Assembly (NCBI GenBank): GCA_965207885.1
Contig: OZ242311.1
Span: forward strand, 3,872,001-3,936,000
DNA: 64,000 nt
Direction: 5' to 3'
Source: Candidatus Latescibacterota bacterium
GTDB lineage: Bacteria; Latescibacterota; UBA2968
The notes below the pieces were generated by a model. The model worked only from the letters and a program-made list of their open reading frames with translations. It ran no database searches and was not told where the DNA came from. Each line of letters opens with the position of its first letter. Position 1 is the first letter of the stretch. This document shows positions 46,644-62,463 of this stretch, one piece after another. A program made the translations under genes and the position numbers.

Positions 46644-49600
46644 TCAAAACTGAATTTCCAGACCGATTTCCACTTCGCGCGGATGATACCTGTAGCGCGT
46701 GGCTTCTCTCGGGTCGCCATATAGCAAAAACTCGGTATCATCTGGCGGGGGTAGCCGCAACCCGTACTGTATATACGTGAAATCCGAATCTCGGCTCTCC
46801 GTACTCCTTTCATTGAACAAATTGCTCACCTCCAAAAATAGCGTGGGACGCAAATTGCCAATGGCTCGAAAATCTTTGGCCGCGTAAAGATCCGTCTTCA
46901 TCACCGTTGCTCCCGTGCGAAATTCGCGCGGGCCAATCGGGGGAACATACTCAAACGGCTCACCGCTGAAAATGCGGTAAATCATACTCACGCGCAGACC
47001 GCCAAATGGATTAATCGCGCCCATTTGGGGTCCATAAGCCATCGGCGTGGCATAATACAACTGAAGCGACAACTGATTCCTGCGCTGTCCGCCGGTAGGT
47101 TCTGCCGAAAAGACTTGCCCATTTGAAGCCGTCCATATCCCGTTATCATTGGTTTTGATGGGAGGCTGCCAGGGACCTGCACCTGGCCCCTGTGACCCGG
47201 CTTGCTCGGTCCAAGACACGATATTTGCCTCGGCTTTAGCGCTAATATCGGCCACTTGCTCAGATGTGAGCGGCACGGGCCTCTCCGAACCATCGGATTG
47301 CACTTCCCAATCGGTCCAGTAGTGTCCGCCCGAAATAAAATCGGCATCGGGAAGCACATACCAGTTCGCAGAGTGTTTGCCGTAGTGAACGCCACCCGGG
47401 TCGCGCACCCATTCGGCGTTGTAGGACAAATTGAACTGGAAATTATTGCTAAACGTCTTCTTCAGCGACAATTCAATCCCGCGCGCTGTCTGCCAGTAGG
47501 TATTGCGTATGGCGTTGACCTGTGAGGACTGGCCTCTGAGGGGATCTACCCAATAGGAAATGTTGTTTCTGGAGTACAATCCCTCATCGCGCCGATAGTG
47601 TGCCGTAATACTCGCCGTATAATCAGCCACAAAATTCCAATCCACCCCCATTTCCATACTCGTCGTGCGCTGGGGTTTCATGCCATCGGACGGCTGCCGC
47701 GCCGTGGTATGCACTTCCATAGCATTCCACTTTTCGGTCTCATCAATAATGCCGTTGCCATTGAGGTCATTGTCCGGCGCCTCACTCGAGAACTGTCTGC
47801 GATGGGTCTCGAGGAGCACGGGAAAGACATTCGCTCGACCAATGAAATAGTGCGCTGCCAGACGGTCTGTAATCGGGTGTGACAGGCCCACGCGAGGACT
47901 CAATGCCGTCATTGTTGGCTTCGAACTATCGAGGTGATCCATTTCATACCGCGCCCGCGTAAACGTGCTGTACATCGGCGATTTGCCCAGCGCCTCTCCC
48001 ATTGAGCCATTGCGCCCAAAATTGTAATAATCCCAGCGCAAACCCAGATTGGCGACCAGACCCCCGTACTCGATCTTGTCCTGCACGTACAGGTTCAGCG
48101 TCCACGGTTTCACATTTTTGCCCAGTTCAAAACCATCTGCCACAAACTCGAGAAAACGACTCTTGGTATTGTCAAAATCTTCTCGCGTGCGGTGATATAA
48201 CCGTTGTGTGAGCACCAATCCCGTCTGAATCAAGTGCGACCGATTGACCTGACTCACAAAATCGTATTTGATGCCGTATCTCGTATCTTCCTCTTCGGTG
48301 TATTCGCGCAACAGCGTGGGCAAATTGAAAAACCCCGCCTTATCTTTGCGCACGGCTTCGGTGGCATCCGGCACATCGAACGCATCACGGTCGTATTTGT
48401 TGTAGAAAAATTTCAGGTCGTAATACGTGTTTTCGCCCAATGTATGTGTCAGCGTCAATACCTGGAGCTGCCGCGACAAGGTGTAAGTTCCCGAAGCTGA
48501 AAAATCCTCGGGAAAGAAAATATTTTGTGCATTATTGCGCGTCGATCCCTGAAATCGATCTGACCGTTGATACATACCCAGTGCTTTAACCTTGATATCT
48601 GCACCGGGCCGATACGTCAATGTCGCCTGCATGCGCGGTGGATCGTCCGATACCTGTTCAGCCGCCGGGAACCTGGCCGGACTGCGGGCATAACTCACAC
48701 TGGCAAAATACGAAAAATCGCGTGAGAGCGGACCGCCCAATGTACCTTCCAGGCGGTGTCCACGCTTGTCCGTATAATCGACGCGTTCGTGCGCCATACG
48801 CTCGACATCGTCAGACGTTCCCAGCGTGCGATCTGGTCCTGGATCCATATACGTTTCATTCACCCAATCGGGATTGTCCCATTGCACATTGTCTTCAAAT
48901 CCGGGACTTTCATAAACATCTCGACCCCAGTGCTTTTTGCCCGCAGGTGTGAACTTATACTCCACCCGACCGGAGAAATTGCCTCGACCTTCTTTTGTCA
49001 CCAGACTCACAATACCCGCCCCCGCATTGCCAAATTCTGCATTCATACCGCCGGTTAGCACACTCAATTCCTGAATAGCCGTGGTATTTACGCCCGTAAG
49101 CATGCTCCGATCAACTTCAATCCCATCGATATAATAGCCCACCTGCGTACCCGTTTGCACCTGCGTTGAACTTCCGCGAATGCGGTTGGTGCCATCCAGC
49201 GCCATACCCGGTTGCAACGCGATCAATTGCGATGTCGATCTCACCTGCGGCACAGCCTGAATATCTGCCGCGGAAACCACGTATTTGCTCGTGGTTTTAT
49301 CTGGCTCCACAGGCGGGCGCTCCGCCACGACAACCAGCTCGGCCAATTCCAGACTGGCTTCTTTCAGTGCAAAATCCACCGTGGATGTATAATCCACAAT
49401 CACCTGCACCGCTTCTTTCTTTTCCGTGCCATAGCCCACCATCGTCGCCGTAAGGGTGTACATGCCGGGATCTACAGCCAGAATTAAATAGCGGCCCTCG
49501 GCATCGGTAGTCGCTCCTTTGCGGGTCCCTTCGAGCGTCACATTAGCGCCCGGTAAGGACTCACCTGTAGCGGCATCTGTGATGACACCCGTAATTTTTC

Positions 49601-49670
49601 CCGCTGTTGTCGCCATGGCCGATGTACCCATCAGCAACAACAAAATAAATCCCAATATTAACTGCTTCAT
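46644..49670 (-). CDS. TonB-dependent receptor
   Basis: Signal peptide, GKITG.I.DA.TGE.L.GANV carboxypeptidase-regulatory domain, plug IRG...Y.IDG...TGG.NAEFGN, terminal PR....GL...F. Confidence 0.92.
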   Translation of the reverse strand: MKQLILGFILLLLMGTSAMATTAGKITGVITDAATGESLPGANVTLEGTRKGATTDAEGRYLILAVDPGMYTLTATMVGYGTEKKEAVQVIVDYTSTVDFALKEASLELAELVVVAERPPVEPDKTTSKYVVSAADIQAVPQVRSTSQLIALQPGMALDGTNRIRGSSTQVQTGTQVGYYIDGIEVDRSMLTGVNTTAIQELSVLTGGMNAEFGNAGAGIVSLVTKEGRGNFSGRVEYKFTPAGKKHWGRDVYESPGFEDNVQWDNPDWVNETYMDPGPDRTLGTSDDVERMAHERVDYTDKRGHRLEGTLGGPLSRDFSYFASVSYARSPARFPAAEQVSDDPPRMQATLTYRPGADIKVKALGMYQRSDRFQGSTRNNAQNIFFPEDFSASGTYTLSRQLQVLTLTHTLGENTYYDLKFFYNKYDRDAFDVPDATEAVRKDKAGFFNLPTLLREYTEEEDTRYGIKYDFVSQVNRSHLIQTGLVLTQRLYHRTREDFDNTKSRFLEFVADGFELGKNVKPWTLNLYVQDKIEYGGLVANLGLRWDYYNFGRNGSMGEALGKSPMYSTFTRARYEMDHLDSSKPTMTALSPRVGLSHPITDRLAAHYFIGRANVFPVLLETHRRQFSSEAPDNDLNGNGIIDETEKWNAMEVHTTARQPSDGMKPQRTTSMEMGVDWNFVADYTASITAHYRRDEGLYSRNNISYWVDPLRGQSSQVNAIRNTYWQTARGIELSLKKTFSNNFQFNLSYNAEWVRDPGGVHYGKHSANWYVLPDADFISGGHYWTDWEVQSDGSERPVPLTSEQVADISAKAEANIVSWTEQAGSQGPGAGPWQPPIKTNDNGIWTASNGQVFSAEPTGGQRRNQLSLQLYYATPMAYGPQMGAINPFGGLRVSMIYRIFSGEPFEYVPPIGPREFRTGATVMKTDLYAAKDFRAIGNLRPTLFLEVSNLFNERSTESRDSDFTYIQYGLRLPPPDDTEFLLYGDPREATRYRYHPREVEIGLEIQF

Positions 49671-49691
49671 AATCCTCTCCTCGTTTGAGAT

Positions 49692-50384
49692 CTACCAGTA
49701 CAATTTGAACGCCGTCCTGAAATCGAACATCGCAATGGGAAATACTCCGGGCAGATCCCACGCCTCCATCGGACGCAAATCACCCAAAATCATGTGATAA
49801 CGCCCGCGGATATCCAGCCCGAATCGCCCCTGCACCACCGTCATGCCCAACCCCACATTCGCACCCAGAGCCGTATGTTCATCCTCTCGATCATCCAGCA
49901 TCAGATCCGCATTCAAAGGCTCTTCTTTTTGCCCCGGATAAATCAGACCAGTAATCCGATCCTGATAATCGTAGAACCCCGCTCCCACAGCGATATATGG
50001 CAAAAGTTGCAAATCACTGCCGGACTTTCGGGTATTGAGATACGCCAGAGCATTGATCAAAAAGCTGTTGAGATTAAACCGAGAATTTGCATCGGGACTC
50101 AAATATTGTTGCTTGTCAATAGGCCAGGTAAACGCCAGACCTTCGATCTTTCCGTCATCCATTGTCAGATGATGGTATTCAAACTCCATCGTAGCACGCG
50201 AACTGACCTGATAATCCAGCACCGCACCATATACCTGAGAAGCCGAATACCGATCGTGAAATCCCAGCACGGGCACGCTGCGGTTAAAAAACACGCCAGC
50301 ACCGTATCGAGCCTCCTGGGCAGAAACCGGCACCGCGATCAACAATGCCAGCAGCCACATATTCAACATCAAATATCTATTCAT
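49692..50384 (-). CDS. Outer-membrane beta-barrel domain protein
   Basis: Signal peptide, amphipathic strands (PYIAVGAG, G.NVG.G), terminal W. Start ATG 50384 (AGGAG RBS). Confidence 0.65.
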   Translation of the reverse strand: MNRYLMLNMWLLALLIAVPVSAQEARYGAGVFFNRSVPVLGFHDRYSASQVYGAVLDYQVSSRATMEFEYHHLTMDDGKIEGLAFTWPIDKQQYLSPDANSRFNLNSFLINALAYLNTRKSGSDLQLLPYIAVGAGFYDYQDRITGLIYPGQKEEPLNADLMLDDREDEHTALGANVGLGMTVVQGRFGLDIRGRYHMILGDLRPMEAWDLPGVFPIAMFDFRTAFKLYW

Positions 50385-50539
50385 AGATATGTCTCCTTTT
50401 AACAGTACACAGTTGTATAACATGCCACATCTCTTGTCATATTGCCTCCTTTCCAGGGAGCACAAGTATTTATCTCTATTGAAGCGATGTACAACTTCGT
50501 AGAAGTTTAACCGTCGGTATTTTCCTCCTCTCTCAAGTA

Positions 50540-50666
50540 TTGACAAAAACACATAAAATTGTTATGGTTTTTGTTTTTTGTCGTACGATGGATTTCTAAA
50601 TCCTTTATACGGTCACCTGGTCGTTAGCCCGACCTCGCCAAAGTTCGAAGGCTAACGGCCTTTTTT
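50540..50666 (+). ncRNA. Candidate approximately 90-nt small RNA (promoter plus terminator, no ORF)
   Basis: TTGACA(50540)-17-TATGGT(50563); 11-bp stem GGTCGTTAGCC/GGCTAACGGCC plus T6 at 50619-50666; both flanking genes are on the minus strand. Confidence 0.4.
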
Positions 50667-50704
50667 ATATGACCAAACAGAAATTCCGAATGTTCCAACC
50701 CCGC

Positions 50705-51475
50705 TCAAACCCCTAACTTCTTGATAAACGCCAGATTCTTCGCGTGATCGGCATTTGGGTCATCGCCCGAAGGCGTCTCCAGAACAATGTACCCATCGTA
50801 ACCGATCTCGCGCATCGCCGCATCCACCGAATCAAAATCCACGCGCCCGTCTCCCAATGCCTGCCGGTCCGTATCCTTCGCGTGAATCATCCCGACACCC
50901 TCAGGCCCCAGCTTCAAAATTTCCTCAGCCGGATCCTGTCCGCGCGTCATCGTATTGCCCGTATCGTGATAGACCTTCACCGCAGGAGACCCCACGCGAT
51001 CCAAAATCATCACCAGTTGATCCGCGCTAAAGGTCGTCTCCAGATCCAAAATCACGTCGTGTTCTTCCGCAACATCGCCCAGTGCTTTGAACCCATCCAC
51101 CAGTTGATCCCACGTCGAATCCGGCCACTCATCCATATCTCGCGGAAACATCGGCACCAAAATATGCCGCGTATCAACGGCAGCGCACGACCCAATCACA
51201 TGCGTCAAAATCTCAACACCCTCGGCGCGCTTTTCCGCTTCTGGCAATGCGGGATGAAATTGTGAAAACACCCCTGGCGACAGTGAAGAAATCTCAACAC
51301 CCGCCGCATCTGCCAATCCCTTCAGCTTCTCTGCCCCACCATCCTCCCACAAAATATTCTCCCCATAGTCTCGCCCAACGCAAAACTCCACCCCATCAAA
51401 TCCAATATCCTTCGCCACTGAAAATACCGCTTCCAGCGGTGCTTTTAACATATTATCTCGAATACCGTATTTCAC
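50705..51475 (-). CDS. Sugar phosphate isomerase/epimerase (xylose-isomerase-like TIM barrel)
   Basis: GFDGVE, LE, Y.DTGN, IH.KD, G.G.VDF, GY.G..VLE. Confidence 0.88.
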   Translation of the reverse strand: MKYGIRDNMLKAPLEAVFSVAKDIGFDGVEFCVGRDYGENILWEDGGAEKLKGLADAAGVEISSLSPGVFSQFHPALPEAEKRAEGVEILTHVIGSCAAVDTRHILVPMFPRDMDEWPDSTWDQLVDGFKALGDVAEEHDVILDLETTFSADQLVMILDRVGSPAVKVYHDTGNTMTRGQDPAEEILKLGPEGVGMIHAKDTDRQALGDGRVDFDSVDAAMREIGYDGYIVLETPSGDDPNADHAKNLAFIKKLGV

Positions 51476-51730
51476 AATAAATCTCCTTTCAGATATTTAA
51501 TTAAAACTTAAAGAACCAATTTATAGAATTTTCTATATTTAATAAATAAAATTTATTACAGGCCTTCATTAAAAAAGACAATAGGGTTCCAAAAGATTCC
51601 ACTCGCATTTTACCTTTTACAACTTTCACCTTGTCCGCCTGCCGTAAATAGCTTATAAATGATAACGCGATGTGCTGCTTTGTGTTTTTTTGTAATACAA
51701 ACATATGTTTCTAATAGAGATGAAACCTTT

Positions 51731-52828
51731 ATGTCTTTGACAGAATCTGCGGACTTACGAACCAGAAGTGCTAATCGACCCGTTATGAATAGACCTGATG
51801 AGCTACCGCCATTTCCCGAGGGGTGGTATTTCGTCGCAAGCCGCGAGTCCATTCTGCGAGAGAAACTGATCGAGAAAACGTGGCTGGGCGAGGAAATCGT
51901 CGCCTGGTGCGACGAGTCAGGCCGTGTCTGCGTGGCCGACGCGGTATGTCCGCACCTGGGCTCGCACCTGGGGCCGGAGGTCGGTGGGAAGATATGCAAT
52001 GGTCGCCTCGTCTGTCCTTTTCACGGATTTGAGTACGATACGACCGGTCAATGCGTTGCGACTCCGAATGCCCCGGCACCCAGAGTTGCGAGACTGAAAG
52101 TATATGAGACGCGAGAGAGCCTCGGCATGGTCTTCGCCTGGTTCGGGAGCGGCGGCCGGCCGCCGCAGTGGGACCTTCCAAACGAGCCAACCACTGGACA
52201 AGAGTGGTGTGAACTGGGATTCAACATACTCCGGTTCCGTGGACATCCCCAGGAAACAACCGAGAATTCCGTGGATCTGGGACATCTGCGCTACGTGCAT
52301 GGTTACGACAATGTGAATCCAGTCGGTTCGGTAACGGTAGATGGTGCCTATTTGAAGAGTTGCTTTGACTTCAAACGCGTTCGCAAAATCCTGGGTGTAA
52401 AGGACCTCGTGTACGAACCCTCGGCCATCACCCACGTCTATGGACTGGGCTACTCCTTCGTCGAAATCCACGAGAAAACTATCGATATGAATGCGAGATT
52501 GTGGGTGCTCGCAACGCCCATTGATGGCACCCTCATCGATCTTGCATTGGTCAGCCAGGCGCGAGAAATCCGCAAGCCCAGGCGATTCATCTCAGGCCTG
52601 GGGTTTCTGCCGATGAAGCTGCGCCACAGGCTGATGAATCGCATTTTGTTGTCACAACAAAAACGGGATGTCCTGCAGGATGTGGTGATCTGGGAACGGA
52701 AACGGTATCGGCCTACCCCCAGGTTGTGCCGCGCCGACGGCCCCATAGGGAAGTACCGCCGGTATTGCCGGCAGTTCTATCCGGATCCGACAATTGCGAC
52801 GGGAAGTGGAGACTCGATCTCCGATTAG
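51731..52828 (+). CDS. Rieske non-heme iron oxygenase, Neverland/DAF-36 (sterol 7-desaturase) or KshA type
   Basis: PFPEGWY, CPHLG.HLG...CPFHG Rieske ligands, EN.VD..H...VH mononuclear site, D..IW..K.Y...P.L...DGPI..YRR...QFY tail. Confidence 0.8.
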   Translation: MSLTESADLRTRSANRPVMNRPDELPPFPEGWYFVASRESILREKLIEKTWLGEEIVAWCDESGRVCVADAVCPHLGSHLGPEVGGKICNGRLVCPFHGFEYDTTGQCVATPNAPAPRVARLKVYETRESLGMVFAWFGSGGRPPQWDLPNEPTTGQEWCELGFNILRFRGHPQETTENSVDLGHLRYVHGYDNVNPVGSVTVDGAYLKSCFDFKRVRKILGVKDLVYEPSAITHVYGLGYSFVEIHEKTIDMNARLWVLATPIDGTLIDLALVSQAREIRKPRRFISGLGFLPMKLRHRLMNRILLSQQKRDVLQDVVIWERKRYRPTPRLCRADGPIGKYRRYCRQFYPDPTIATGSGDSISD

Positions 52829-52919
52829 GCGGCAGCCGATGAGGGCGCATCATGTACGGCTGGCGGTTCAGGAAGGCACCCTGACTTGAGGGGCCCGCGC
52901 GAAGGCGCGCCAGGCGGGC

Positions 52920-53954
52920 CTAAAGAGGCTTGCGAGCCAAGAAACAGTACAGCGGCGTAAAGATACCCGCCTTGCCGCCCGCGATATAAGCCTCCGCGGT
53001 CCGATCCAGAAGTCGGATGACTTCCGCGGAGCCCTTCGGAAAGAGCCGCAGTACTTCAGCCAGCTTCGATCCTGTGATGACCGCTTTACGGCCCCACGGA
53101 AGCCTGCGCAAGGCGTTTCCGACCGTCCCATGGCGACTCTCCATGGGTTGATACCAAGGTGTGGAGGGTCCTTCCTGGATCGCCCGGTCCATCCCTTCCA
53201 TGACTTGGAATCCCGCGGCTCCGAGCGCGTGATCCACTTCCCCGAAGGTGGCGATGTCCTTCAGCGCAATGCCGCGCATGAGATCCTCCTTGATGGCCCG
53301 ATGCCGGTCATCCTTCGGATCGAACTTGCCCGTCAGACACATTTCCTGCCCCCAGAACAGGGCACCGGGTTTCAGCACGCGGAATACCTCCTCGAAGGCG
53401 CGTTGCTTGTCCGGTGCATGGCACGTTGACTCTATGGCATAACCCCGGTCGAAGGTATCGTCCTCAATGGTGCTCATGTCCATGAAGCTGCACGTCTCGA
53501 AATCGACCATGTGATCAAGCCCCGCCTCGGCGTTCAACCTCTTCGCCTCTTCCAACTGGATCTCATTGATGTTGATTCCTACAACCCTGACACCAGCCTC
53601 ACGGACGACGCGGCGCATGGGGGCGCCGACTCCACAACCAACGTCGACCACCGTCATACCCTGTTGCAATTCCAACTTGGAAATCATCAGCCGCTGATGC
53701 CGGACCTTGGACTCCTCCAGACTCTCATGAGGCGTGAGGGGCGCGAAGTGCAGGGACTGGCCCCAGCCCCACACCATGAACCCGCTACAAAGGTCGTAAT
53801 AGTCTTTCACCGTTTCCGTGTGATCGTACCCGCCCGCGCCACCGGGCTCCAGTACCGCCCGGTCGAGCCAGCCGTCGAAGTGCTGCACTCGACGTGCGAC
53901 GCCCGATCCCCGGTACGCATCTCTCAGTTCTCTTGACAGTTTGCACAGCCGCAT
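52920..53954 (-). CDS. smt: Sterol C24-methyltransferase (ERG6/SMT family)
   Basis: All SMT regions in order: YYDL...F..WGWGQSLHFA (I), DVGCGVG.P (II), YAIESTCHAP (III), RVLKPG (IV), PWY.P, GG..GIFTP.Y.FLARKP. Confidence 0.88.
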   Translation of the reverse strand: MRLCKLSRELRDAYRGSGVARRVQHFDGWLDRAVLEPGGAGGYDHTETVKDYYDLCSGFMVWGWGQSLHFAPLTPHESLEESKVRHQRLMISKLELQQGMTVVDVGCGVGAPMRRVVREAGVRVVGININEIQLEEAKRLNAEAGLDHMVDFETCSFMDMSTIEDDTFDRGYAIESTCHAPDKQRAFEEVFRVLKPGALFWGQEMCLTGKFDPKDDRHRAIKEDLMRGIALKDIATFGEVDHALGAAGFQVMEGMDRAIQEGPSTPWYQPMESRHGTVGNALRRLPWGRKAVITGSKLAEVLRLFPKGSAEVIRLLDRTAEAYIAGGKAGIFTPLYCFLARKPL

Positions 53955-53996
53955 TTCGTGGTGTTTTCCCCCCTGGCTCTACAAGGAGCCAAGTCG

Positions 53997-56030
53997 TCAG
54001 GTGAACAGCTCCCGTCTCTGCTGGGAGATGTGGAACTTCAGCTTCTTGCTCGGTTTCAGCGACGGGAACGGACTGAAACGGAGCTTGTGCTTGTACTTCG
54101 CCGGCGACACCTCAATAGTGAAGTAGTGCGCCAGCATCAGCAAGTTGGCCGCCAGGTGCAGCTCCATCCACCGGGTGCCGAGACACTTGTGCGTGCCCAG
54201 CCCGTACGGGGCGTACCCGGGGCTTCGGTGTTCATGGCGCAACGGCAGGTAGCGGTCGATGTCGAACTTGTAGGGGTCGGGAAAGACCTCGCTCATGTAA
54301 TGCGTGGCGGTCATGGCGATGTGGATCCGTTCCCCCATGGGCAGCTCGTAGTCCTCGACCACGCACGTATTCATCACGTTCCGAATGGACATGGAGACGA
54401 TCGGGTACATGCGCATGCACTCCATGAGGAAGCGGTGGGTAACGTCAATGTTGGCGGGGGTGAAATCCTCTCTCTCGGGGTCTCCCTTGGCGAACAGGGC
54501 ATCTGCTTCGGCCTGAATTCTGGCGTAGAGGTCGGGCTGCGACGCCATGGCATAGACTACGAGGCTGAACGTATCGCCGAGGTACACGCTGGCAATCAAG
54601 GCCGCGGAAAAGGAGAACAGAAGGTTGGACTCCGGGAGAAACTGCGGGTCGCTCGCGTGCAGGCTGAGATAATCGTCCACCAGGTCCCGCGGGCTGTCCA
54701 CTCGTTGGGCGGGGGTATGGATGTCCTGGACCCGCTGCATCAGTGTGTCCAGGGCTTTCGCCCGGCGTCTCATGCCCGGGGTGTTCAGCGTGAATCTGGG
54801 CAAGAGCTTGGCGACGTGCACGCTGAGGGCCCGTTCCTTGTACGCCATCAGGTCGTCCATGAGGTCCTGGGTATCGACGCCGATGAACAGTGGGGAGAGC
54901 TGGGCGTTCACCATCTCCCGGCACATGGATGTGGCGCGGTATGAGTCCCCAACCGTCAAGCTCGCCATGTACTTGCGCCCCTGATTGTAGAGCTGGTCTA
55001 GCTGCCCTCCCAGCCTCACGGCAGAATAGGCGGGCGACAGGGACTGGCGAAGCCGGAAGTGATCGGCTCCGTCCAGGGCGGGCAGGACGCCGGACGCGCC
55101 GTAGACCTTCTCGAAGTCGCTGAAGTAGTCCCTGGCTCTCAGGTACATGCGCCCGCGCTTGTGCACCCAGCGGTTTGTCTCGAGTCCGGCCAGGAAGATC
55201 ATGGGCTTCGAGAAGGGAGGGCGAATCTGGAACACCGGACCGTACTCCTCCGCAAGGTTCCCGAAGAGCGCGTTCAGGTTGCCGTCTCGACTATGCGGGT
55301 TCAGCAGCAGCTTGGGCAGCGAAACCGTCGGAATTTTCCTGGCAAGGGCAGGACGTCGAAGGGCTGGGCCGGCGAGGTTCTGAGAGACCGCAGAGGCCAG
55401 GGAGCGGCCGATCAGATCCATCTTGCAGATGAACTCGATGCGCTCCTCCGCCTCGTCGTCGAGCTGGAATATGAAACGAAAGACGTCGCAGGTATTGACG
55501 AGGCAGATAATGATGACATCTCTCGGATCGGGAATCTCGTCGGTGAAGATGACCCTGCTGATCCGCGTTTTTATGAACTGGCCTGCAGTGCCCTCTTCCG
55601 ACTTGCTGGACAGTTCCCCACGCCAGACGGTAGGAGCCAGTGTCCAGAATTCACCGTCGTGATATTCCAGGATCTTCAGGTCAACCAGGCGGTCCAGAAC
55701 CGAATCAATGATCGACTCCGCACGGGGAGCGAGCCGTTCGATCCAGTACTGGGCGTTCCGTTGAACAGATTCGGCTGCGATTTCTTTCAGAATGGGGTCC
55801 AGGGTAGGTCTCCCCGTTTCCGACTCGTCCACGAGGAACAGGGATTCCAGGTCCGTGTCGATGCGCGATCTGAGTGAAAGCTCCGCGAGCACGGCACCGA
55901 CCACGGCGCAGTTCAAATGCCAGCCGGGTACCTGGTGAAAGTAGCCAGTCTCCTCGTTGAGGAGCATCAGGATGAGCTCTTCGGTGAGACTTAGCGATTG
56001 GGGCGTCAAACCCTCGGTAGTATTAGCCAT
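53997..56030 (-). CDS. GPP34/GOLPH3-like domain fused to cytochrome P450
   Basis: N-terminal LSL.EEL.L..L...G...GAVL.EL.L..RI...TG...LD..L..I; C-terminal ECMR (ExxR), F.DP..FD..RY, PYG.G.HKCLG heme Cys. Start ATG 56030 (GGAGG RBS). Confidence 0.85.
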   Translation of the reverse strand: MANTTEGLTPQSLSLTEELILMLLNEETGYFHQVPGWHLNCAVVGAVLAELSLRSRIDTDLESLFLVDESETGRPTLDPILKEIAAESVQRNAQYWIERLAPRAESIIDSVLDRLVDLKILEYHDGEFWTLAPTVWRGELSSKSEEGTAGQFIKTRISRVIFTDEIPDPRDVIIICLVNTCDVFRFIFQLDDEAEERIEFICKMDLIGRSLASAVSQNLAGPALRRPALARKIPTVSLPKLLLNPHSRDGNLNALFGNLAEEYGPVFQIRPPFSKPMIFLAGLETNRWVHKRGRMYLRARDYFSDFEKVYGASGVLPALDGADHFRLRQSLSPAYSAVRLGGQLDQLYNQGRKYMASLTVGDSYRATSMCREMVNAQLSPLFIGVDTQDLMDDLMAYKERALSVHVAKLLPRFTLNTPGMRRRAKALDTLMQRVQDIHTPAQRVDSPRDLVDDYLSLHASDPQFLPESNLLFSFSAALIASVYLGDTFSLVVYAMASQPDLYARIQAEADALFAKGDPEREDFTPANIDVTHRFLMECMRMYPIVSMSIRNVMNTCVVEDYELPMGERIHIAMTATHYMSEVFPDPYKFDIDRYLPLRHEHRSPGYAPYGLGTHKCLGTRWMELHLAANLLMLAHYFTIEVSPAKYKHKLRFSPFPSLKPSKKLKFHISQQRRELFT

Positions 56031-56061
56031 CGGTTTCTGCCTCCCTGCATCATAAAGTGCA

Positions 56062-59000
56062 TTACCCGGTACCGGCGCCGGAACGGCCCCGCGAAGCAAT
56101 CAGACGCAGATGGATGGTGTAAAGTGCGGGAACGACCATCATGAGTATAGCCGTAGTAAAGAGAATGCCGCAACCGAGCGAGGCGGCAAAGGGGATCAGG
56201 AACTGGGCTTGGATGGCACGTTCCAGAATAAGGGGAGTGAAGCCGAGGAACGTAGTCACGGAAGTGAGCATGATCGGACGAAAGCGCCCCTTGGCGCCCT
56301 CCACGATCGCCGTCCTTGCCAAGGCGCCTTCCCCGATTCTCTGATCGATGAAATCGATCATGACCAGGGAATCGTTCACGACCACCCCACTCAGGCCGAA
56401 GATACCCATGAAAGATACGGCACTCAGGGCTACTCCCAGGACCCAGTGACCCAGGATCACTCCGATGAACCCGAAGGGGATGACGGCCATGATGATGAAC
56501 GGCTTTGTATAGGATCGGAGGGGGATGGCGAGCAGCGCGAAGATCAGGAGCAGGGCAATCGCAAATCCGCGATACAGCGCATCCAGGGATTCGAGCTGCT
56601 GTTGTTGTTCCCCTCCGAAGCTGTATGTCAGGTCTGGGTGCAGGGCGGTCAGATCCGCGAGGATCGAATTGGTCAGGATGTCGTTGGCTTCGTCGCCTGA
56701 AATCACCGAAGCATCCACGTCCGCAGTGACCGTGACGACGCGCTGGCCGTCCTTCCGTCGAATGGCCGGCGGCGACACCCCTGGGTTCAGGGAGGCCACA
56801 CTCATGACCGGGACCTCGGCCCCGCCCGGCGTACGGAGCAGGTATCCTTCGACATCGGTGATGGATTTTCGTTCATCGGAGGGCAGGCGCACATAGACCC
56901 GGACCTCTTCCCGGTCGCGCTGCACCCGAACGGCCTCTGCGCCGAAGAACGCCGCCCGTGCCTGCCCGGCCAGGTCGTGGAGTGTGAGACCGAGGGTTCG
57001 CGCTTCCGGCCGCAGCTCCAGTTGAACTTCCGGGATGCCCGGGGAGTGGTCCGAACGTATGTCATAGACGCCTCCCACCCCACGGAGTCCATCGACCACG
57101 GAGTCTGCAATCCGGGCAAGGCGCTCCGGGTCCGGATGCGACAACACGGCCTCCACCGGGTTGCCCAAGTCGAAGACCTCGCCGCTGAAGGTGATGCCGC
57201 GTACGTAGGGCAGCACCCCCACCTCCTCCCGCCATGCCTGCACGACCTCTCCGGTGGAGATTTCTCTCTGTTGGGCACCCAGGAGTTTGAACTCAATGGT
57301 GGCGATGTTGGCTTGCGGATTGAGGGTCGGCTCCGGATTGAGCCCGCCCGCGAGTCTCGAGCCCTGTCCGACGGTCACCGTTACGCCGGTCAGCAGCGGT
57401 GGTGCATCCCCGGGCCGCCCGCGCGAGAGTCGTTCGATGACCCGGTGGCCTGCGGCCTCCAGTTCCTGCGCCACTTCGTACGTCCTCGGAGCGGTCGCCC
57501 CATCGGGCATCTCCAGGACGACCGTCGCGATATCCCCTTCCACGTCAGCGGCCAGCGTGGTAGGAACGATCCCCGCGGGCAACAGGGAGATGCTCAGCAC
57601 GAGCATTCCCACAGCCCCCGACATCGTCACCGCGGGCTGGTCGGTGGCAAACTGCAGGGCCCGATCCAGCGGGCCCTGGACGAACCTGTTCAGCAGCGCG
57701 TCAACGCGCCCCTGGAGCCGCGCGAAGAACCGGTCGAAGGCATTGGCCGGCACCCACTCCGGACCGTGCAGGTGGGACAGGTGGTTGGGCAGCACGAACA
57801 GCGATTCGACCAGGGAAACCAGCAGCATGGCGATCATGATGATCGGCAGGGCCCGCCACACCTCACCGACGCCGCCGGGAATGAACAGCAACGGGACGAA
57901 GGCCACCACCGACGTCAGAACTGCGAACGTCAACGGCACCTTGATCCGTCGTACGCCGCGGATCGCGGCCGTGACCCCGGGTGTTCCCCGCTTGCGTTCG
58001 TATTGAATGTGCTCGGCCACGACGATGGCATCGTCGACGATGATTCCTATGGCGAGGACAAAGGAGAACAGGCTGATGGTGTTGATCGCCACGTCGAATG
58101 CCATCATGATGGCGAGGGCACCGATTCCCGAAACGGTGAGGCCCACGGCGACCCAAAGCGCGAGCCGGATTTCGAGAAACAGGCTGAGTGCGATCAGCAC
58201 CAGCAACAGGCCCAGGATCCCGTTCTTGAGGAGAAGATCGGCGCGTTCCTCATAGACCTGGGATTCGTCATTCCACATGGTGACGCCCACACCGTCGGGT
58301 AGGGAAGGGATCACTTCGTTTGCCAGGTGCTGTCGGACGGTCGTGGCGACATCCATCACTTGCTCACCAGCGGCGCGGTAGATCTCCACGAATACCCCGG
58401 GATGGTTCTGGTGCCGGATGATCAGGTCTGCTTCCTGAAAACCGTCGCGAACCTCGGCGATATCTCCAAGGCGCAGGACCGTGCCGTCACGTCCGCTGAG
58501 AAGGACGATCTCCTCGAAGTCCTGTTGGTCGTAGTTCTGGCCGAGGGTGCGGACCCGCACCTGGGATTCCCGGGTATTGATACTGCCGGCAGATAAGTCC
58601 AGGGAACTGCGACGAATGGTGTTGGCTATGTCGGTGAGTGTGAGTCCAAGTGCTCTTAGCCGATGAAGCGGTACCTCGATAGAGATCTCGTATTTCCGAA
58701 TACCACTGACTTCGACCTGGGACACGGAGGGAAGTGTTGTGAGTTCATCTTCGATCTGGTACGCCAATTCTTTCAGCGAGCGCTCAGGTACATCGCCATA
58801 TACAATGAGCCGCATCATGCTCATGCGGTTGGTCATCTCCCTGAAACTGGGACGATCGGCACCGGCCGGGAAAGACTGTATGCGATTGACCGCAGACTCG
58901 ATATCGTTCAGCGCCTGGACCATATCCGTACCGAAATCCATTTGAATCCGTACGGATGCCATACCCGGGGCCGATACGGACTTGACCGCCTTCACGTCAT

Positions 59001-59256
59001 CCAACCCGCTGACCTGGTCTTCGATCTTGACGACGATCGACTCCTCGATCTCCTCCGGTGTGGCGCCGGGATAGGCCATCGACACTTCGATATGGTAGAA
59101 AGGGGTGGTCGGCCACGCTTCCCGGTCGAGTCCGGTCAGCGACACCAGCCCGGCGGCGATAATGGCCCACATCAGTAGATTGGCGGCTATACTGTTACCA
59201 GCCATATAAGCTATGGGACCACGCTGTTCCCGTGCGGAACCTTCTTCCCGGTTCAT
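56062..59256 (-). CDS. RND efflux permease (AcrB/AcrD/AcrF family)
   Basis: N.IAANLLM, YPGATPEE.EE, GI.VDDAIVV.E, G.VVND, RFRPI.LT..TT..G..PL. Confidence 0.95.
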   Translation of the reverse strand: MNREEGSAREQRGPIAYMAGNSIAANLLMWAIIAAGLVSLTGLDREAWPTTPFYHIEVSMAYPGATPEEIEESIVVKIEDQVSGLDDVKAVKSVSAPGMASVRIQMDFGTDMVQALNDIESAVNRIQSFPAGADRPSFREMTNRMSMMRLIVYGDVPERSLKELAYQIEDELTTLPSVSQVEVSGIRKYEISIEVPLHRLRALGLTLTDIANTIRRSSLDLSAGSINTRESQVRVRTLGQNYDQQDFEEIVLLSGRDGTVLRLGDIAEVRDGFQEADLIIRHQNHPGVFVEIYRAAGEQVMDVATTVRQHLANEVIPSLPDGVGVTMWNDESQVYEERADLLLKNGILGLLLVLIALSLFLEIRLALWVAVGLTVSGIGALAIMMAFDVAINTISLFSFVLAIGIIVDDAIVVAEHIQYERKRGTPGVTAAIRGVRRIKVPLTFAVLTSVVAFVPLLFIPGGVGEVWRALPIIMIAMLLVSLVESLFVLPNHLSHLHGPEWVPANAFDRFFARLQGRVDALLNRFVQGPLDRALQFATDQPAVTMSGAVGMLVLSISLLPAGIVPTTLAADVEGDIATVVLEMPDGATAPRTYEVAQELEAAGHRVIERLSRGRPGDAPPLLTGVTVTVGQGSRLAGGLNPEPTLNPQANIATIEFKLLGAQQREISTGEVVQAWREEVGVLPYVRGITFSGEVFDLGNPVEAVLSHPDPERLARIADSVVDGLRGVGGVYDIRSDHSPGIPEVQLELRPEARTLGLTLHDLAGQARAAFFGAEAVRVQRDREEVRVYVRLPSDERKSITDVEGYLLRTPGGAEVPVMSVASLNPGVSPPAIRRKDGQRVVTVTADVDASVISGDEANDILTNSILADLTALHPDLTYSFGGEQQQQLESLDALYRGFAIALLLIFALLAIPLRSYTKPFIIMAVIPFGFIGVILGHWVLGVALSAVSFMGIFGLSGVVVNDSLVMIDFIDQRIGEGALARTAIVEGAKGRFRPIMLTSVTTFLGFTPLILERAIQAQFLIPFAASLGCGILFTTAILMMVVPALYTIHLRLIASRGRSGAGTG

Positions 59257-60449
59257 GGATCACCTCCGATCCGCACCACCCTGCCTTCGGTTGCGACCTT
59301 TATCCCGCCTATGACGACCGCCTGACCGGCTTTCAGCGTGCCGGTTACGAACACCTTATCATCGGAACGCTGAAGGACGCGCACTGGGACGATGGTCAAT
59401 AGTGTGTCATCGCGCACTGCCCAGACCTCGTTGCCCGGTCTGAGTGCTGATCGCCGCAGGATGAAGTACTGGTCTGGGATGATTCCCTCAATTCGCACTT
59501 CTGCGAATTTGCCCACGAGAAGGGGCGGGCCAAGATCTGCGCCTGCCCCTTCGACTCGGGTGCCGCTTGTAAAAGGATTCGGGACGCGTACGATGACGTT
59601 GATGGTGCGCGTCTGTTCGTCCAGGGATGCCTCTGCTCGATCTACATAGCCCTCCCAGGCATAGCTCCCGTCGCCGTATTCAGCGATGACACGAGCCTTG
59701 ACCCGCCTATCTCCGTCGCCCGCTTCCAGCCCCCAAAGGCCGGGAATAAGGGCCGCATTGGCATCGGAGAGGGGAACTACCACCTCTACTGCGTCGGTCG
59801 CGTAAAGTCGCCCCACGCTCTGACCGGCTACCACGAACTGCCCCACATCTATCGATTCTGTCTGCACGACACCTCTGAAAGGCGCGCGGACTTTTGTGCG
59901 TGCCAGAGCCAACTCGGCGTCAGCGAGCACAGCACTATCTCTGGCCACCGAGGCGCGGGCTGCCTCGAGTTGAGGCTCCCACAGCGCAAGGGGATTGGCT
60001 TTGGCTATATCCGTTTGGTCACGTCTGAACTGCGCGTACTCAGCGCGTGCGATCTGGGCTTCTTCATTCGCCCTGAGGAGTGCGACATGCTGCGCGGCCA
60101 CGTTGGCACGCGCCTGCTGAACTCTGTTGAGGTAGTCGGCATCATTAATGCGGAAGAGAACCTGCCCTTTTCTGACTCGTCCGCCACTCTGAAACGCCGG
60201 ATCTACCCAAACAACCTTACCATTGATTTCAGCGGCAACATCTATCTCTGCGACGGGCCGAACCGTTCCGGCCCCGTACACGGGAATTGCACCAGCACCG
60301 ATCGCCGCCGGAGCCGTGACTGCGAAAGGCGCCCGGGAAGTAAGAGGCCGGACTTCCTGCTCAGGCTTCAGCCAGACCATAAAGTAGGCAACCGTCAAGG
60401 ATATGAGAAGGATGGCACCTGCCACAAGTAAGCTTCTTCCGCGATTCAT
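59253..60449 (-). CDS. RND periplasmic adaptor (MFP) subunit
   Basis: N-terminal TM, G.V.KGQ.L..I lipoyl half-motif, L.RT...APF.G, GQ.V; ATGA overlap with the RND gene. Confidence 0.92.
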   Translation of the reverse strand: MNRGRSLLVAGAILLISLTVAYFMVWLKPEQEVRPLTSRAPFAVTAPAAIGAGAIPVYGAGTVRPVAEIDVAAEINGKVVWVDPAFQSGGRVRKGQVLFRINDADYLNRVQQARANVAAQHVALLRANEEAQIARAEYAQFRRDQTDIAKANPLALWEPQLEAARASVARDSAVLADAELALARTKVRAPFRGVVQTESIDVGQFVVAGQSVGRLYATDAVEVVVPLSDANAALIPGLWGLEAGDGDRRVKARVIAEYGDGSYAWEGYVDRAEASLDEQTRTINVIVRVPNPFTSGTRVEGAGADLGPPLLVGKFAEVRIEGIIPDQYFILRRSALRPGNEVWAVRDDTLLTIVPVRVLQRSDDKVFVTGTLKAGQAVVIGGIKVATEGRVVRIGGDP

Positions 60450-60525
60450 CTCTCTTCTCTTTTCATTAAAGTCCGATAATCACCCGGGGTAACGCCTCTC
60501 TTCCCTACGCCGAGTTCTAACGCTG

Positions 60526-61641
60526 TCAACAGAAGATTTCGTCTCCAATATCTATTTGCGGCAACACCGCACACAACACCTTCGCAAAAGCTTGCCGCTC
60601 GGCGGATAGCCCCACGGTCACGCGAATGCAGCGGTCGAGCGGATCCACGCCTGGCATCCGCACGAAGACCCCGTGCTGCAAAAGCATCTGCATCAGCCGC
60701 CGCGCTCGCTCGCCACTACCCACGTCGAGGGCCACAAAATTAGTCGCCGAAGGCACCGTTTGCAGCCCCAATTCCGCCGCCAGCACCGCGTATTCCCGTC
60801 GGCCTTCCTCTACTTGCCGCACCACCGAGCGCACGAACGCATCGTCGCCCAGCGAAGCAAGTGCCCCAGCTTGGGCGATGCGATTGACGCCAAAGTGATT
60901 GCGCACCTTGTCGAGCGCGGCCACCACATCGCGGTGTGCCAGCGCGTAGCCGACCCTGGCCCCAGCCATGCCGTGCGCCTTGGAAAACGTCCGCAACCGC
61001 ACCACCTGTGCCCGTTCCACTTCCAGCGGCAACAGGGCATCCTCCGGCGCGAAGTCGATATACGCCTCGTCGAGCAGCAACACACAATCCGGCGGCAACC
61101 CCACGATAAAATCCCGCAACTCGTCGGCTCGCTGATAGGTGCCCATGGGGTTGTCGGGATTGGCCACGTAGATCAGCTTGGGGCGCACTTGCCGCGCCTT
61201 GTCCAACAGGGCCGGCAAGTCCTCTCGATCCGCGCGATAGGGCACCTTGTGCAACACCGCCCCGTGCCCCTCGACGTGGTAGTTAAACGTGGGATAGGCC
61301 CCCAGCGACGTCACCACCGCGTCGCCCGGCTCGGCAAAAAGGCGCACCAAAAGCCCCAACAGTTCGTCAATCCCCGCACCCAAGACGACCTCTTCCTGCG
61401 CCACCCCGTGCCGCACCGCCAACGCCGAGCGCAGCTCGTATCCCTCTGGATCGTTGTACCAATGCACTTGCTCCACCGCCTCTACCATGGCCTGCCGCGC
61501 ACGCGGCGAGATACCAAAATTGCTCTCATTAGCACCAACTCGCAGGGCGAGCGGCTGCCCTTGCTCCCGCTCCAATGCCTCGGGCGGCACAAAGGGAACG
61601 GTCGCTGGCAGGGCGCGGACGATGTGCGTAAACGGCAACAC
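60526..61641 (-). CDS. PLP-dependent class I/II aminotransferase (HisC-like)
   Basis: GANE, G.DE, NPDNP.G, DEAY, RTFSKAHGMAG.RVGY, TNFV, IRV.VG. Confidence 0.85.
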   Translation of the reverse strand: MLPFTHIVRALPATVPFVPPEALEREQGQPLALRVGANESNFGISPRARQAMVEAVEQVHWYNDPEGYELRSALAVRHGVAQEEVVLGAGIDELLGLLVRLFAEPGDAVVTSLGAYPTFNYHVEGHGAVLHKVPYRADREDLPALLDKARQVRPKLIYVANPDNPMGTYQRADELRDFIVGLPPDCVLLLDEAYIDFAPEDALLPLEVERAQVVRLRTFSKAHGMAGARVGYALAHRDVVAALDKVRNHFGVNRIAQAGALASLGDDAFVRSVVRQVEEGRREYAVLAAELGLQTVPSATNFVALDVGSGERARRLMQMLLQHGVFVRMPGVDPLDRCIRVTVGLSAERQAFAKVLCAVLPQIDIGDEIFC

Positions 61642-61644
61642 GGG

Positions 61645-62463
61645 TTAAGACCACACGTAGATTTCGTCGTCGTCTTCGGCATAGCCAATGAAGACGGCGA
61701 GCACCACCCGCGGATCGTCCCCCTGTACCGCAGGGACCTCGTGGATGCAGCGCGTATTGAAGAAATACAAATCGCCCGGCTCGAGCGCGACCTCGCAGTG
61801 CGCCACGCCATGCGCGGCCGCATATTCGTGAAAACGGCCCTCGGCGATATACGGCTGTATCTCCTTGGTCCACAGACAGCGATGCAACACAGCCTGCACC
61901 CCAGGTCCTGCGGAATCCGCGTTCTGTACGCACAGCACACCGGCAAATTGGTGGGTAAAGCGCGTCACCTCGTAGTTGAACCGCTTTTCGCGCAGAACGA
62001 CGTGGTCGATGTGCGGACTATAGGCGTGGGTCTCGTAGTGGATGCGAAAGATGGCCGGGCCGTACAAGCACCCGTCGCGCTCGCGCGCCGTCTTAACCTC
62101 CTTATTGGAAGCCAACGCCTGCAAGTGCCTATAGAGCAGTTGCACCGGGTCGAGCAAACCCGCAAAAAGGGTAGCAAAAAGCGCTTGCGTCTCCTCCGCA
62201 TCTGCCAAGAACGCCTCTTGGTCGCCGCCCAAGTTGCCGAGGCTGGTGCCAATGTCGATGCGCGTGCGCTCGTCGCCCGCAGCGCGCAGCAACCCGCGCT
62301 CGGCAAAGCGTTCCATCAGCCGCTGGCAATCGGCTGGCGTACAGACCTGGGGCAACAGAATCGCCGGTATCTCCGCCCGAGCCAAGGCGCCGAGCGGATC
62401 GGCGCACGCGTCCGGCCCCACGGGCCGCCAAGCGGCTCTTGTGTGACCCTGTGGATACTTCAA
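61645..62463 (-). CDS. Fe(II)/2OG oxygenase-like protein
   Basis: PHID, L.PGDLY.FN...IHEV..V.G..PR. Confidence 0.7.
   Translation of the reverse strand: MKYPQGHTRAAWRPVGPDACADPLGALARAEIPAILLPQVCTPADCQRLMERFAERGLLRAAGDERTRIDIGTSLGNLGGDQEAFLADAEETQALFATLFAGLLDPVQLLYRHLQALASNKEVKTARERDGCLYGPAIFRIHYETHAYSPHIDHVVLREKRFNYEVTRFTHQFAGVLCVQNADSAGPGVQAVLHRCLWTKEIQPYIAEGRFHEYAAAHGVAHCEVALEPGDLYFFNTRCIHEVPAVQGDDPRVVLAVFIGYAEDDDEIYVWS

Follow-up and report, generated by a model that had tools for sequence, protein, structure and literature searches.

A horizontally spread cassette joining a GPP34-cytochrome P450 fusion to a sterol methyltransferase-like enzyme, a Rieske oxygenase and an RND pump: a candidate module for tailoring exogenous sterols

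Fusions of a GPP34 domain with a cytochrome P450 (P450), named GPP34_L, have been reported as exclusive to sponge symbionts, and a role in the binding of phosphatidylinositol 4-phosphate (PI4P) and in the evasion of phagocytosis has been proposed for them (PMC11706023, Microbiome 2025). Among symbiont genomes, 92.6% of 27 from Latescibacterota and likewise of 54 from Gemmatimonadota encoded this long form, with 1 to 6 copies per genome, and both GPP34 forms, long and short, were expressed in a sponge metatranscriptome. Flanking genes are described there for the short form only, and the main text is silent on sterols, methyltransferases and efflux. The present work concerns a gene island containing such a fusion in a Candidatus Latescibacterota bacterium (GenBank assembly GCA_965207885.1, contig OZ242311.1). 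The window, that is, the whole stretch of 64,000 nucleotides that was analysed (contig positions 3,872,001 to 3,936,000, forward strand), carries the fusion gene together with genes for a sterol methyltransferase (SMT)-like enzyme, a Rieske oxygenase, and a resistance-nodulation-division (RND) pump with its adaptor. Positions are those of the window, except where the prefix G000:C1 or the word genome indicates the complete sequence, which is a single contig of 6.23 Mb and 97% complete.

Bacterial SMTs are known from sponge metagenomes, where their clusters, with sdmA homologues as neighbors, were read as de novo synthesis (PMC10070321; preprint of Brown and Welander, 10.64898/2025.12.19.695621); 13 of 24 tested SMTs are accompanied by an oxidosqualene cyclase (OSC). 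The terms "P450," "Rieske," and "RND" do not occur in the main text of the former, nor "P450," "Rieske," "efflux," and "GPP34" in the latter. Clusters of ERG24, CYP51, and LSS, with or without an SMT gene, have been described in Ircinia symbionts with evidence of horizontal transfer and an enrichment of SMT, and they likewise were read as de novo synthesis (PMC9531527). An RND-superfamily protein beside sterol enzymes is documented for BstABC of Methylococcus capsulatus and discussed with the hopanoid transporter HpnN, delivery to the outer membrane being the proposed function (PMC10942540). Among the open-access papers and bioRxiv preprints listed by literature searches (in one of them the best 10 of 560), none was found that links GPP34-P450 fusions with SMTs or describes the cassette. 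The initial annotation of this DNA, made from the sequence alone, did not know the five-gene combination as a described system; its parts have been published (PMC11706023, PMC10070321).

The island comprises five intact open reading frames (ORFs). Four lie on the minus strand as an operon: a periplasmic adaptor (membrane fusion protein, MFP) of 398 aa as the first gene (59253..60449), an RND inner-membrane transporter of 1064 aa (56062..59256), the GPP34-P450 fusion of 677 aa (53997..56030), and an SMT-family methyltransferase of 344 aa as the last gene (52920..53954). A Rieske non-heme iron oxygenase of 365 aa is encoded on the plus strand (51731..52828), convergent to the operon. The adaptor and RND genes overlap by 4 nt, 31 nt separate the RND gene from the fusion, and 42 nt the fusion from the SMT gene; the ORF list and the starts of homologues bear out this arrangement as it had first been given. 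The gene identities hold at the family level, Pfam finding every domain. We judge it reasonably probable that these genes form a mobile module which tailors sterols that the cell does not make itself and exports the product.

A scan of one genome per species, with a four-row alignment of the fusion as query, yielded 568 relatives of the fusion, the best 80 of which were examined with 10-kb flanks (complete at 66 loci). In these best 80 the fusion is 69-99% identical to that of the window, and at least eight phyla are represented, taxon labels throughout being the submitters' record titles. The labels include Latescibacterota, Gemmatimonadota (among them Candidatus Palauibacter and Longimicrobiales), Rhodothermales, and Vicinamibacteria, and further Nitrospirales, Opitutales, Binatia, Chloroflexota/Dehalococcoidia, and Thermodesulfobacteriota. 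By tblastn with the window proteins, on which all locus gene counts rest (the clustering of ORFs being crude), an SMT of the cassette type is present at 65 of the 80 loci, the Rieske gene at 66, and both at 59. An RND-superfamily transporter accompanies the fusion at 69 loci, in 49 cases of the AcrB type and in 20 an MMPL protein instead; across phyla, the RND proteins of the cassette copies are 84-98% identical. SMT, Rieske, and transporter genes occur together at 52 of the 80 loci, or 46 of the 66 with full flanks. Lack of co-occurrence elsewhere had been set beforehand as a ground for giving up the idea of a module, and these counts speak for the module. Four genes flanking the island in the window, three drawn from both sides and a GH4 gene further downstream, recur at 0/80 loci, and the aminotransferase gene upstream of the operon adjoins the cassette in none of the 80. 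Since the cassette genes are grouped at most loci while the tested flanking genes are found at none, the grouping exceeds chance.

Some members are frequent elsewhere, namely a FAD oxidoreductase of the amine-oxidase family (43/80 loci), an outer-membrane factor (OEP) upstream of the adaptor (24/80), and a 268-aa protein (12/80); neither the oxidoreductase, nor the cassette outer-membrane factor, nor the 268-aa protein is found in the window genome. A variant without SMT, consisting of MFP, RND, and fusion genes followed by the convergent Rieske gene, is seen in three Latescibacterota-labelled loci (L055, L060, L083), the fusion being 72-74% identical to that of the window and yet the Rieske protein 88%.

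The SMT, fusion, RND, and MFP genes are each matched in part by contigs from RNA libraries (at least 95% identity; four runs from three studies, with a sponge metagenome label on two of the runs); the Rieske gene is represented by 52617-52824 only, in one of the four runs. DNA may be present in such libraries, and level, strand, and transcript ends cannot be read from contigs, so that they give a weak hint of expression.

A connection with sterols emerges from the neighbors of the cassette in other genomes. An ERG4_ERG24 gene (245 bits), a separate Rieske gene resembling SdmA, the bacterial sterol C-4 methyl oxidase (407.5 bits on NF052579, at locus L056 adjoining ERG24), and a canonical SMT gene each adjoin the cassette at 7/80 loci, labelled Nitrospirales, Binatia, Thermodesulfobacteriota, and, in one case, Opitutales. 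The presence of these three genes beside the cassette ties it to sterols, and the sterol link first suggested for the window alone thus gains support from genomes labelled Nitrospirales and Binatia.

The window genome itself appears unable to make sterols. Profile searches of its single contig detected no SQHop_cyclase_C, SQHop_cyclase_N, or squalene epoxidase (SE) domain, whereas the same cyclase search gives 300-490 bits in other genomes; the absence of cyclase and epoxidase genes, first noted for the window, hence applies to the whole genome. No ERG24 was found there by tblastn with the L056 protein, and a search for the ERG4_ERG24 family was also negative, but its control gave no match. 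As the genome has neither triterpene cyclase nor squalene epoxidase, the substrate must come from outside; its source would be the host or neighboring sterol-making symbionts. Two adjacent genes of the SQS_PSY family (squalene/phytoene synthase type) were observed in this cyclase-less genome at G000:C1:935464-937031.

Among the carriers, a full-length cyclase (at least 300 bits, in an ORF of 600-950 aa) is encoded by 0/40 of the first and 25/40 of the second genomes of the set, leaving 55 of the 80 without one, 29 of which have their loci on records titled "chromosome: 1" (hand count). The 25 comprise all four Nitrospirales, all three Binatia, one Thermodesulfobacteriota, and 17 of the 20 Chloroflexota; no full-length cyclase was found in carrier genomes labelled Latescibacterota, Gemmatimonadota, Rhodothermales, Vicinamibacteria, or Opitutales, lineages which, with that of the window among them, have to depend on a substrate from outside. 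Longer ORFs, of 1211-1315 aa and distinct from the normal cyclases (600-950 aa), match the whole of SQHop_cyclase_C at 175-195 bits in seven genomes (G043, G050, G059, G060, G062, G076, G080). In G080, where ERG24, the SdmA-like gene, and a canonical SMT gene lie near the cassette, no other cyclase-like match was found. The full-length cyclases of the 25 carriers, and the ERG24, CYP51, LSS, and SMT clusters described in Ircinia symbionts (PMC9531527), are what might recommend the view that the cassette belongs to this bacterium's own de novo pathway, in the manner of the published sponge-symbiont steroid clusters. With cyclase domains, squalene epoxidase, and ERG24 all missing from the window genome, and the same method recovering cyclases elsewhere, we hold this view to be very improbable.

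The SMT-like protein matches Sterol_MT_C (PF08498) with 56.6 bits against a cut-off of 21.7, over residues 282-343, and class I methyltransferase domains (Methyltransf_11, 64.2 bits); its gene is the only Sterol_MT_C gene of the window genome. For comparison, 65 SMT-like ORFs from the related loci were aligned, of which 53 are of the cassette type and 12 are paralogues (40-46% identity), the residue numbering being mapped from the motifs printed in the preprint of Brown and Welander. According to this source (10.64898/2025.12.19.695621), 25 residues are conserved across all functional SMTs, among them Y74, T78, G84-W-G-x-x-F89-H-F91, and D125-x-G-x-G-x-x-G-P133, and the Region I motif also has Y/F81-E82-Y/F83; in docking, the side chain of the sterol was flanked by residue 81 and G249, and seven of 11 SMTs inactive on desmosterol and 24-methylenecholesterol deviate at one or more of the conserved residues. 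Region I of the window protein reads FMVWGWGQSLHF, whereas canonical paralogues in related loci have FYE[FY]GWGxSFHF. With Y74, S78, M81, V82, W83, GWG, L89, H90, and F91, it departs from the published sterol-binding motif. Region II (DVGCGVGAP) agrees with the published pattern in D125, G127, G129, and P133, with alanine in place of glycine at position 132; in most cassette orthologues this region ends in GGP. The departure in Region I is general to the cassette: M81 and L89 occur in 53/53 cassette-type sequences, V82 in 51, and serine or asparagine at position 78 in 50, while residue 83 is W, F, or Y. The canonical paralogues, by comparison, have Y/F81 in 11/12, E82 in 12/12, and F89 in 11/12. 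The cassette SMTs, on this alignment, are a separate clade with an altered Region I.

Because Region I is non-canonical and the deviations are of the kind reported for inactive SMTs, the protein is filed as a member of the SMT family that probably acts on another substrate, or at another site, than in classical C-24 methylation. Its designation in the initial annotation as a sterol C24-methyltransferase is accordingly retained for the family (Sterol_MT_C); the C-24 role is insecure, Region I deviating at positions 78, 81, 82, and 89. Departure from the Region I motif, seen in 53/53 cassette-type sequences, is a ground for a different reading, in which the cassette serves a non-sterol lipid or natural-product pathway: the SMT-like enzyme would methylate an isoprenoid, fatty acyl, or polyketide substrate, the oxygenases would decorate it, and the pump would provide export or self-resistance. 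The protein also scores 66 bits on CMAS, the P450 matches terpene oxygenase models weakly, and the carrier genome has no sterol synthesis. We nevertheless consider it rather unlikely, given the Sterol_MT_C domain, the KshA_C steroid-oxygenase domain of the Rieske protein, the position of the cassette among ERG24, SdmA-like, and canonical SMT genes in sterol-producing phyla, and a weak sterol-sensing-like match in the Chloroflexota MMPL.

The Rieske protein (ORF 51659-52828, start codon ATG at 51731) scores 59.5 bits on Rieske and 80.4 bits on KshA_C (cut-off 23.3), and its gene is the only KshA_C gene in the window genome. The translation contains CPHLGSHL...CPFHG and ENSVDLGHLRYVH, which fit the CxH...CxxH and E-x3-D-x2-H-x4-H motifs. 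KshA is 3-ketosteroid 9-alpha-hydroxylase, and Neverland/DAF-36 is cholesterol 7-desaturase. Among solved structures KshA comes nearest (4qdc, E 1.2e-23), with a match confined to residues 52-214, and the nearest Atlas clusters were automatically named cholesterol 7-desaturase (score 0.97), which serves as a lead only. SdmA was considered and rejected, since the protein scores 30.8 bits on NF052579 against a cut-off of 600. The sequence thus identifies it as a KshA/Neverland-like oxygenase rather than a bacterial C-4 demethylase. None of ten longer proteins matching the Rieske protein is a GPP34-Rieske fusion, in a search that was weak by its own account and gives no support for a Rosetta-stone link between the two. 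One protein of 675 aa (P0274) carries MMPL, Rieske, and KshA_C domains together, the Rieske part being 60% identical to that of the window; either the fusion is genuine, or it results from read-through between the MMPL and Rieske genes, which are adjacent in the Chloroflexota version.

The best solved relatives being 3-ketosteroid 9-alpha-hydroxylases, steroid catabolism has to be weighed as well: the KshA-like enzyme would open ring B by 9-alpha-hydroxylation, the P450 would attack the side chain, as P450s do when they start side-chain degradation in actinobacteria, and host sterols would be a carbon source. This is quite improbable in our estimation. The operon includes a methyltransferase of a biosynthetic type and an exporter rather than an importer, the genome has just one KshA_C gene, and further catabolic genes are found in the cassette at 0/80 loci (KstD, KshB, and Hsa were not searched for genome-wide).

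The fusion (ORF 53997-56099) starts at the ATG at 56030, as set by homologues of 675-677 aa, and consists of an N-terminal GPP34 domain, a short linker, and a complete P450. Both domains lie in a single ORF, GPP34 (PF05719) with 101.5 bits followed by p450 (PF00067) with 115.4 bits, and homologues carry both. The heme-ligand cysteine and ExxR motifs are seen in the P450 part. The AF2 model (pLDDT 89.9, pTM 0.87) has two confident domains and a short linker of low confidence. Foldseek places CYP184A1, CYP51, and BM3 nearest, at 14-20% identity, with CYP120 on a par, so that a functional P450 family is not assigned. CYP51 was considered and rejected, the best solved CYP51 matching at E 5e-17 over the C-terminal half only, with 19% identity in Foldseek. 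Compared with solved structures, the GPP34 domain matches Vps74 only (E 0.09-0.14), too weakly for its lipid pocket to be judged. The window genome has three P450 genes and three GPP34 genes, two of the long form and one short. The second GPP34-P450 paralogue (L011:8263-14188; G000:C1, approximately 5691260-5697190) is 36-37% identical to the window fusion and sits between a PhyH-type dioxygenase and a sulfotransferase gene, with a CysQ-like Inositol_P gene close by; going by these neighbors, that locus could be a module for lipid hydroxylation and sulfation.

For the fusion the published proposal amounts to a host-manipulation effector: its GPP34 domain would attach to PI4P of the host and prevent phagosomes from maturing, and the neighboring genes would be unrelated to that role. 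It is the role put forward in PMC11706023, with the long form reported only from sponge symbionts; the main text of that paper contains no reference to sterols, methyltransferases, or efflux, and flanks are given for the short form only. The predicted structure and the genetic setting argue otherwise. No signal peptide or other mark of secretion is seen by eye in the translation, GPP34 and an intact P450 are joined in a single fold predicted with confidence, and the linkage to SMT, Rieske, and transporter genes is kept across phyla. The tryptophan and arginine of the eukaryotic pocket do appear aligned with W37 and R54, in a Vps74 alignment of E 0.09 only. The two-domain model, and the lack of a visible signal peptide, fit one folded cytoplasmic enzyme better than a secreted effector, and we regard the effector role of this protein as improbable.

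The transporter is of the AcrB/MdtB (HAE1) kind, with 532.5 bits on ACR_tran over profile positions 9-1019 of 1021; its solved relatives are 8yr0 (E 1.1e-69) and MdtB (9lyq, E 6e-69), and it scores 428.7 bits on NCBIfam RND_permease_2, below the cut-off of 1250. The adaptor has HlyD_3 (59.3 bits) and HlyD_D23 domains, and 142.8 bits on TIGR01730 (RND_mfp) against a cut-off of 94.9. A full-length permease and an adjoining adaptor gene are what a tripartite HAE1 system requires; an outer-membrane factor gene, expected in an HAE1 operon, was not found in the window. An MMPL of the BstA/HpnN type was rejected for this pump, which has no Pfam MMPL match and scores 29.5 bits on the HAE3 model TIGR00921 (cut-off 351.9). 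At 20/20 Chloroflexota-labelled loci the AcrB-type pump is absent and an MMPL protein is present instead. Its matches to Sterol-sensing (E 3.5e-11) and Patched are weak, and its scores on the BstA and HpnN models are only 38.7 and 99.4 bits, respectively. It is accompanied at some loci by the LppX_LprAFG lipoprotein family (eight loci) or the MFS family (nine loci). That the AcrB-type pump can be exchanged for another kind of lipid transporter argues that transport is part of the module, and the dedicated pump postulated at the outset may be counted a member of it, an RND-superfamily transporter being present at 69/80 loci. RND pumps export, which leaves the uptake of host sterols unexplained by the pump.

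Several lines of evidence indicate that the cassette is horizontally spread and mobile. Compared with genomes labelled as other phyla, RpoB is 54-58% identical, whereas the RND protein reaches 84-88%, the fusion 72-79%, and the SMT 76-82%; in one genome RpoB is 69% identical but the cassette proteins are 94-97%. In the shallow RND tree the phyla are interleaved; one sequence labelled Rhodothermales and one labelled Vicinamibacteria, for example, fall inside a clade of Gemmatimonadota, with starred support. In four relatives (L014, L015, L017, L060) the sequences on either side of the cassette correspond, at 90-92% identity, to 4205709-4211079 and 4212060-4219547 of the window genome. In the window genome the cassette (window 51720-60477) is approximately 280 kb from that site, which is occupied (G000:C1:4211079-4212060, L095) by an IS5-family element with DUF4096 and DDE_Tnp_1 domains and 18-bp inverted ends, adjoining a D-Tyr-tRNA deacylase gene. 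The cassette of L060, which lacks the SMT gene, is found at the chromosomal site where L014 has the variant with SMT. These differences in site, the identities in excess of RpoB, the interleaved tree, and a GC content of 60.0% in the island against 51.1% in the genome uphold the horizontal acquisition that had been supposed from composition.

A sequence of approximately 36 bp ending in CAAGGTGAAAG forms an imperfect direct repeat on either side of the cassette in L014 (approximately 5310-5345 and 14485-14520). One copy is found in the window genome at 51600-51640, upstream of the Rieske gene, and one at the "empty" site; the 11-mer occurs seven times in the genome. The repeat could function as an attachment-like site, or it could be a regulatory element. 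Within the sampled phylum the fusion is present in 42/151 genomes and 3/14 families, and in the window's own genus in 12/19, the seven without it including five one-contig genomes that are 97-99% complete. PLSDB contains no plasmid record that matches either the fusion or the SMT with an identity of 60% or above (204 and 65 weak matches, respectively).

The composition of the island agrees with this history. Only about 4 of 3111 genome segments as long as the island reach 60% GC. The AT-rich region upstream of the Rieske gene, between it and a divergent TIM-barrel gene (51476..51730; 28% GC), is real, as first proposed; homology of the cassette with close relatives begins in blastn at about 51720 and stops at 60477, approximately 28 nt upstream of the MFP gene. 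The C-ending codon style that had been described as unlike both flanks differs from the upstream side, with third-position C of 0.32-0.45 in the five island genes against 0.13-0.24 in three upstream genes; the two genes just downstream in coordinates, for an aminotransferase and a WelO5-like enzyme, are likewise GC-rich and have 0.27 and 0.37. The convergent Rieske and SMT genes end 91 nt apart; this interval (52829..52919) has 72.5% GC, and the terminator scan called no terminator-like site in it. Over 51300-60800 the scan for promoters and terminators gave no signal, with two promoter-like sites against 3.1 expected and five terminator-like sites against 7.2.

Upstream of the operon, an aminotransferase gene and a gene for a WelO5-like Fe/2-oxoglutarate enzyme lie at 60526-62463 on the minus strand, with a GC content of 62-63%; only 76 nt separate the aminotransferase stop codon from the start of the adaptor gene, and read-through transcription is possible. 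On the other side, 46644-51475 on the minus strand codes for a TonB-dependent receptor (CarboxypepD_reg and Plug domains), a small outer-membrane protein of the beta-barrel type, and a TIM-barrel protein resembling xylose isomerase, at a GC content near the genome mean.

Taken together, we propose that this cassette of sponge-associated bacteria modifies sterols, or steroid-like lipids close to them, and removes them from the cytoplasmic membrane. An exogenous sterol would partition into the cell envelope and be modified at the cytoplasmic face by enzymes that are cytoplasmic or peripheral to the membrane. The SMT-like enzyme would carry out a side-chain alkylation dependent on S-adenosylmethionine, probably on a non-classical substrate or carbon, the Rieske enzyme a hydroxylation or desaturation, and the P450 would act while held by its GPP34 domain, which might serve as a lipid or membrane dock in place of the membrane anchor of eukaryotic P450s. 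Redox partners for both oxygenases would have to be encoded elsewhere, as would the outer-membrane channel with which the MFP-RND pair would then expel the product, either to the outer membrane or into the surroundings. Candidate purposes are to shield the bacterial envelope against host sterols, to provide the holobiont with modified sterols, or signalling.

A number of observations weigh against this proposal. The SMT departs from functional enzymes in T78 (serine), F89 (leucine), and, in the window protein, G132 (alanine), and it may not use the usual delta-24 sterols, or any sterol. The P450 has no specific sterol-P450 signature, with 19% identity to CYP51. RND pumps of the HAE1 kind are usually drug exporters, and adjacency of a pump does not prove a shared substrate. 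Redox partners, an uptake system, and an outer-membrane channel are all missing from the window; TolC/OEP-like genes are present only elsewhere in the genome, in two copies of 30% identity. The FAD oxidoreductase of 43/80 loci is lacking here, which makes the window copy a reduced version. Some Gemmatimonadota and Latescibacterota labels conflict with the RpoB identities, and the absence of cyclases from draft genomes is weak evidence. The overall interpretation that prompted this study is only partly borne out: the gene families, the transfer, the linkage, and the sterol context stand, the C-24 assignment is insecure, and the sites first suggested for the oxygenases (C7, C9, C22, with Delta5,7,22 products) are mere candidates.

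A more specific form of the proposal would make the cassette the machinery for unconventional sponge sterol side chains (26-methyl, higher-alkyl, and cyclopropyl) derived from host sterols. Symbionts unable to make sterols would take up those of the host, the altered Region I would redirect methyl transfer, the GPP34-docked P450 and the Rieske enzyme would oxidize or desaturate, and the pump would hand the sterols back. We think this unlikely; were it true, "sponge" biomarker sterols would be joint products of the host and of cyclase-less bacteria. For the broader proposal, that of sterol tailoring and export, the many carriers without a cyclase point to bacterial remodelling of host sterols, a route not considered in the debate on sponge biomarkers (24-isopropyl and 26-methyl steranes). 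The hallmark GPP34-P450 fusions, the SMTs of sponge metagenomes, and the sterol transporters of the RND superfamily, three separately published observations, come together in one conserved mobile operon. The GPP34_L family gains a candidate biochemical context in lipid or sterol oxidation, rather than or besides the mimicry of host phosphoinositides, and for the SMT clade with altered sterol-contact residues, published criteria predict failure on desmosterol and 24-methylenecholesterol.

Set against known systems, the Rieske protein resembles KshA, Neverland, and DAF-36 in its Rieske and KshA_C architecture; it differs from KshA in that the window cassette has no KshB-type reductase (the genome was not searched for one) and that the match is limited to residues 52-214. 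The BstA/HpnN transporters (PMC10942540) belong to the same Pfam family as the MMPL of the Chloroflexota version, whereas the window pump is of the AcrB-type HAE1 kind with an adaptor. With the Ircinia clusters (PMC9531527) the cassette shares its occurrence in sponge symbionts of many phyla and the evidence of horizontal transfer; the core genes are different, and the cassette occurs also in genomes without LSS, although such genes are nearby at the Nitrospirales and Binatia loci. The published bacterial SMT clusters (PMC10070321; 10.64898/2025.12.19.695621) have in common with it the Sterol_MT_C family, an origin in sponge symbionts, and neighboring Rieske genes; in contrast to the SMTs reported there, that of the window belongs to a genome without an OSC, has M81, V82, and L89 in place of Y/F, E, and F, and is accompanied by a Rieske protein that is not SdmA-like. 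GPP34_L as described in PMC11706023 has the same architecture in one ORF and shares with the cassette carriers the phyla Latescibacterota, Gemmatimonadota, Acidobacteriota, Nitrospirota, Rhodothermia, and Chloroflexota. What is added here to that description is the setting of one orthologue group of the fusion, which shares a conserved operon with genes for an SMT, a Rieske oxygenase, and a transporter.

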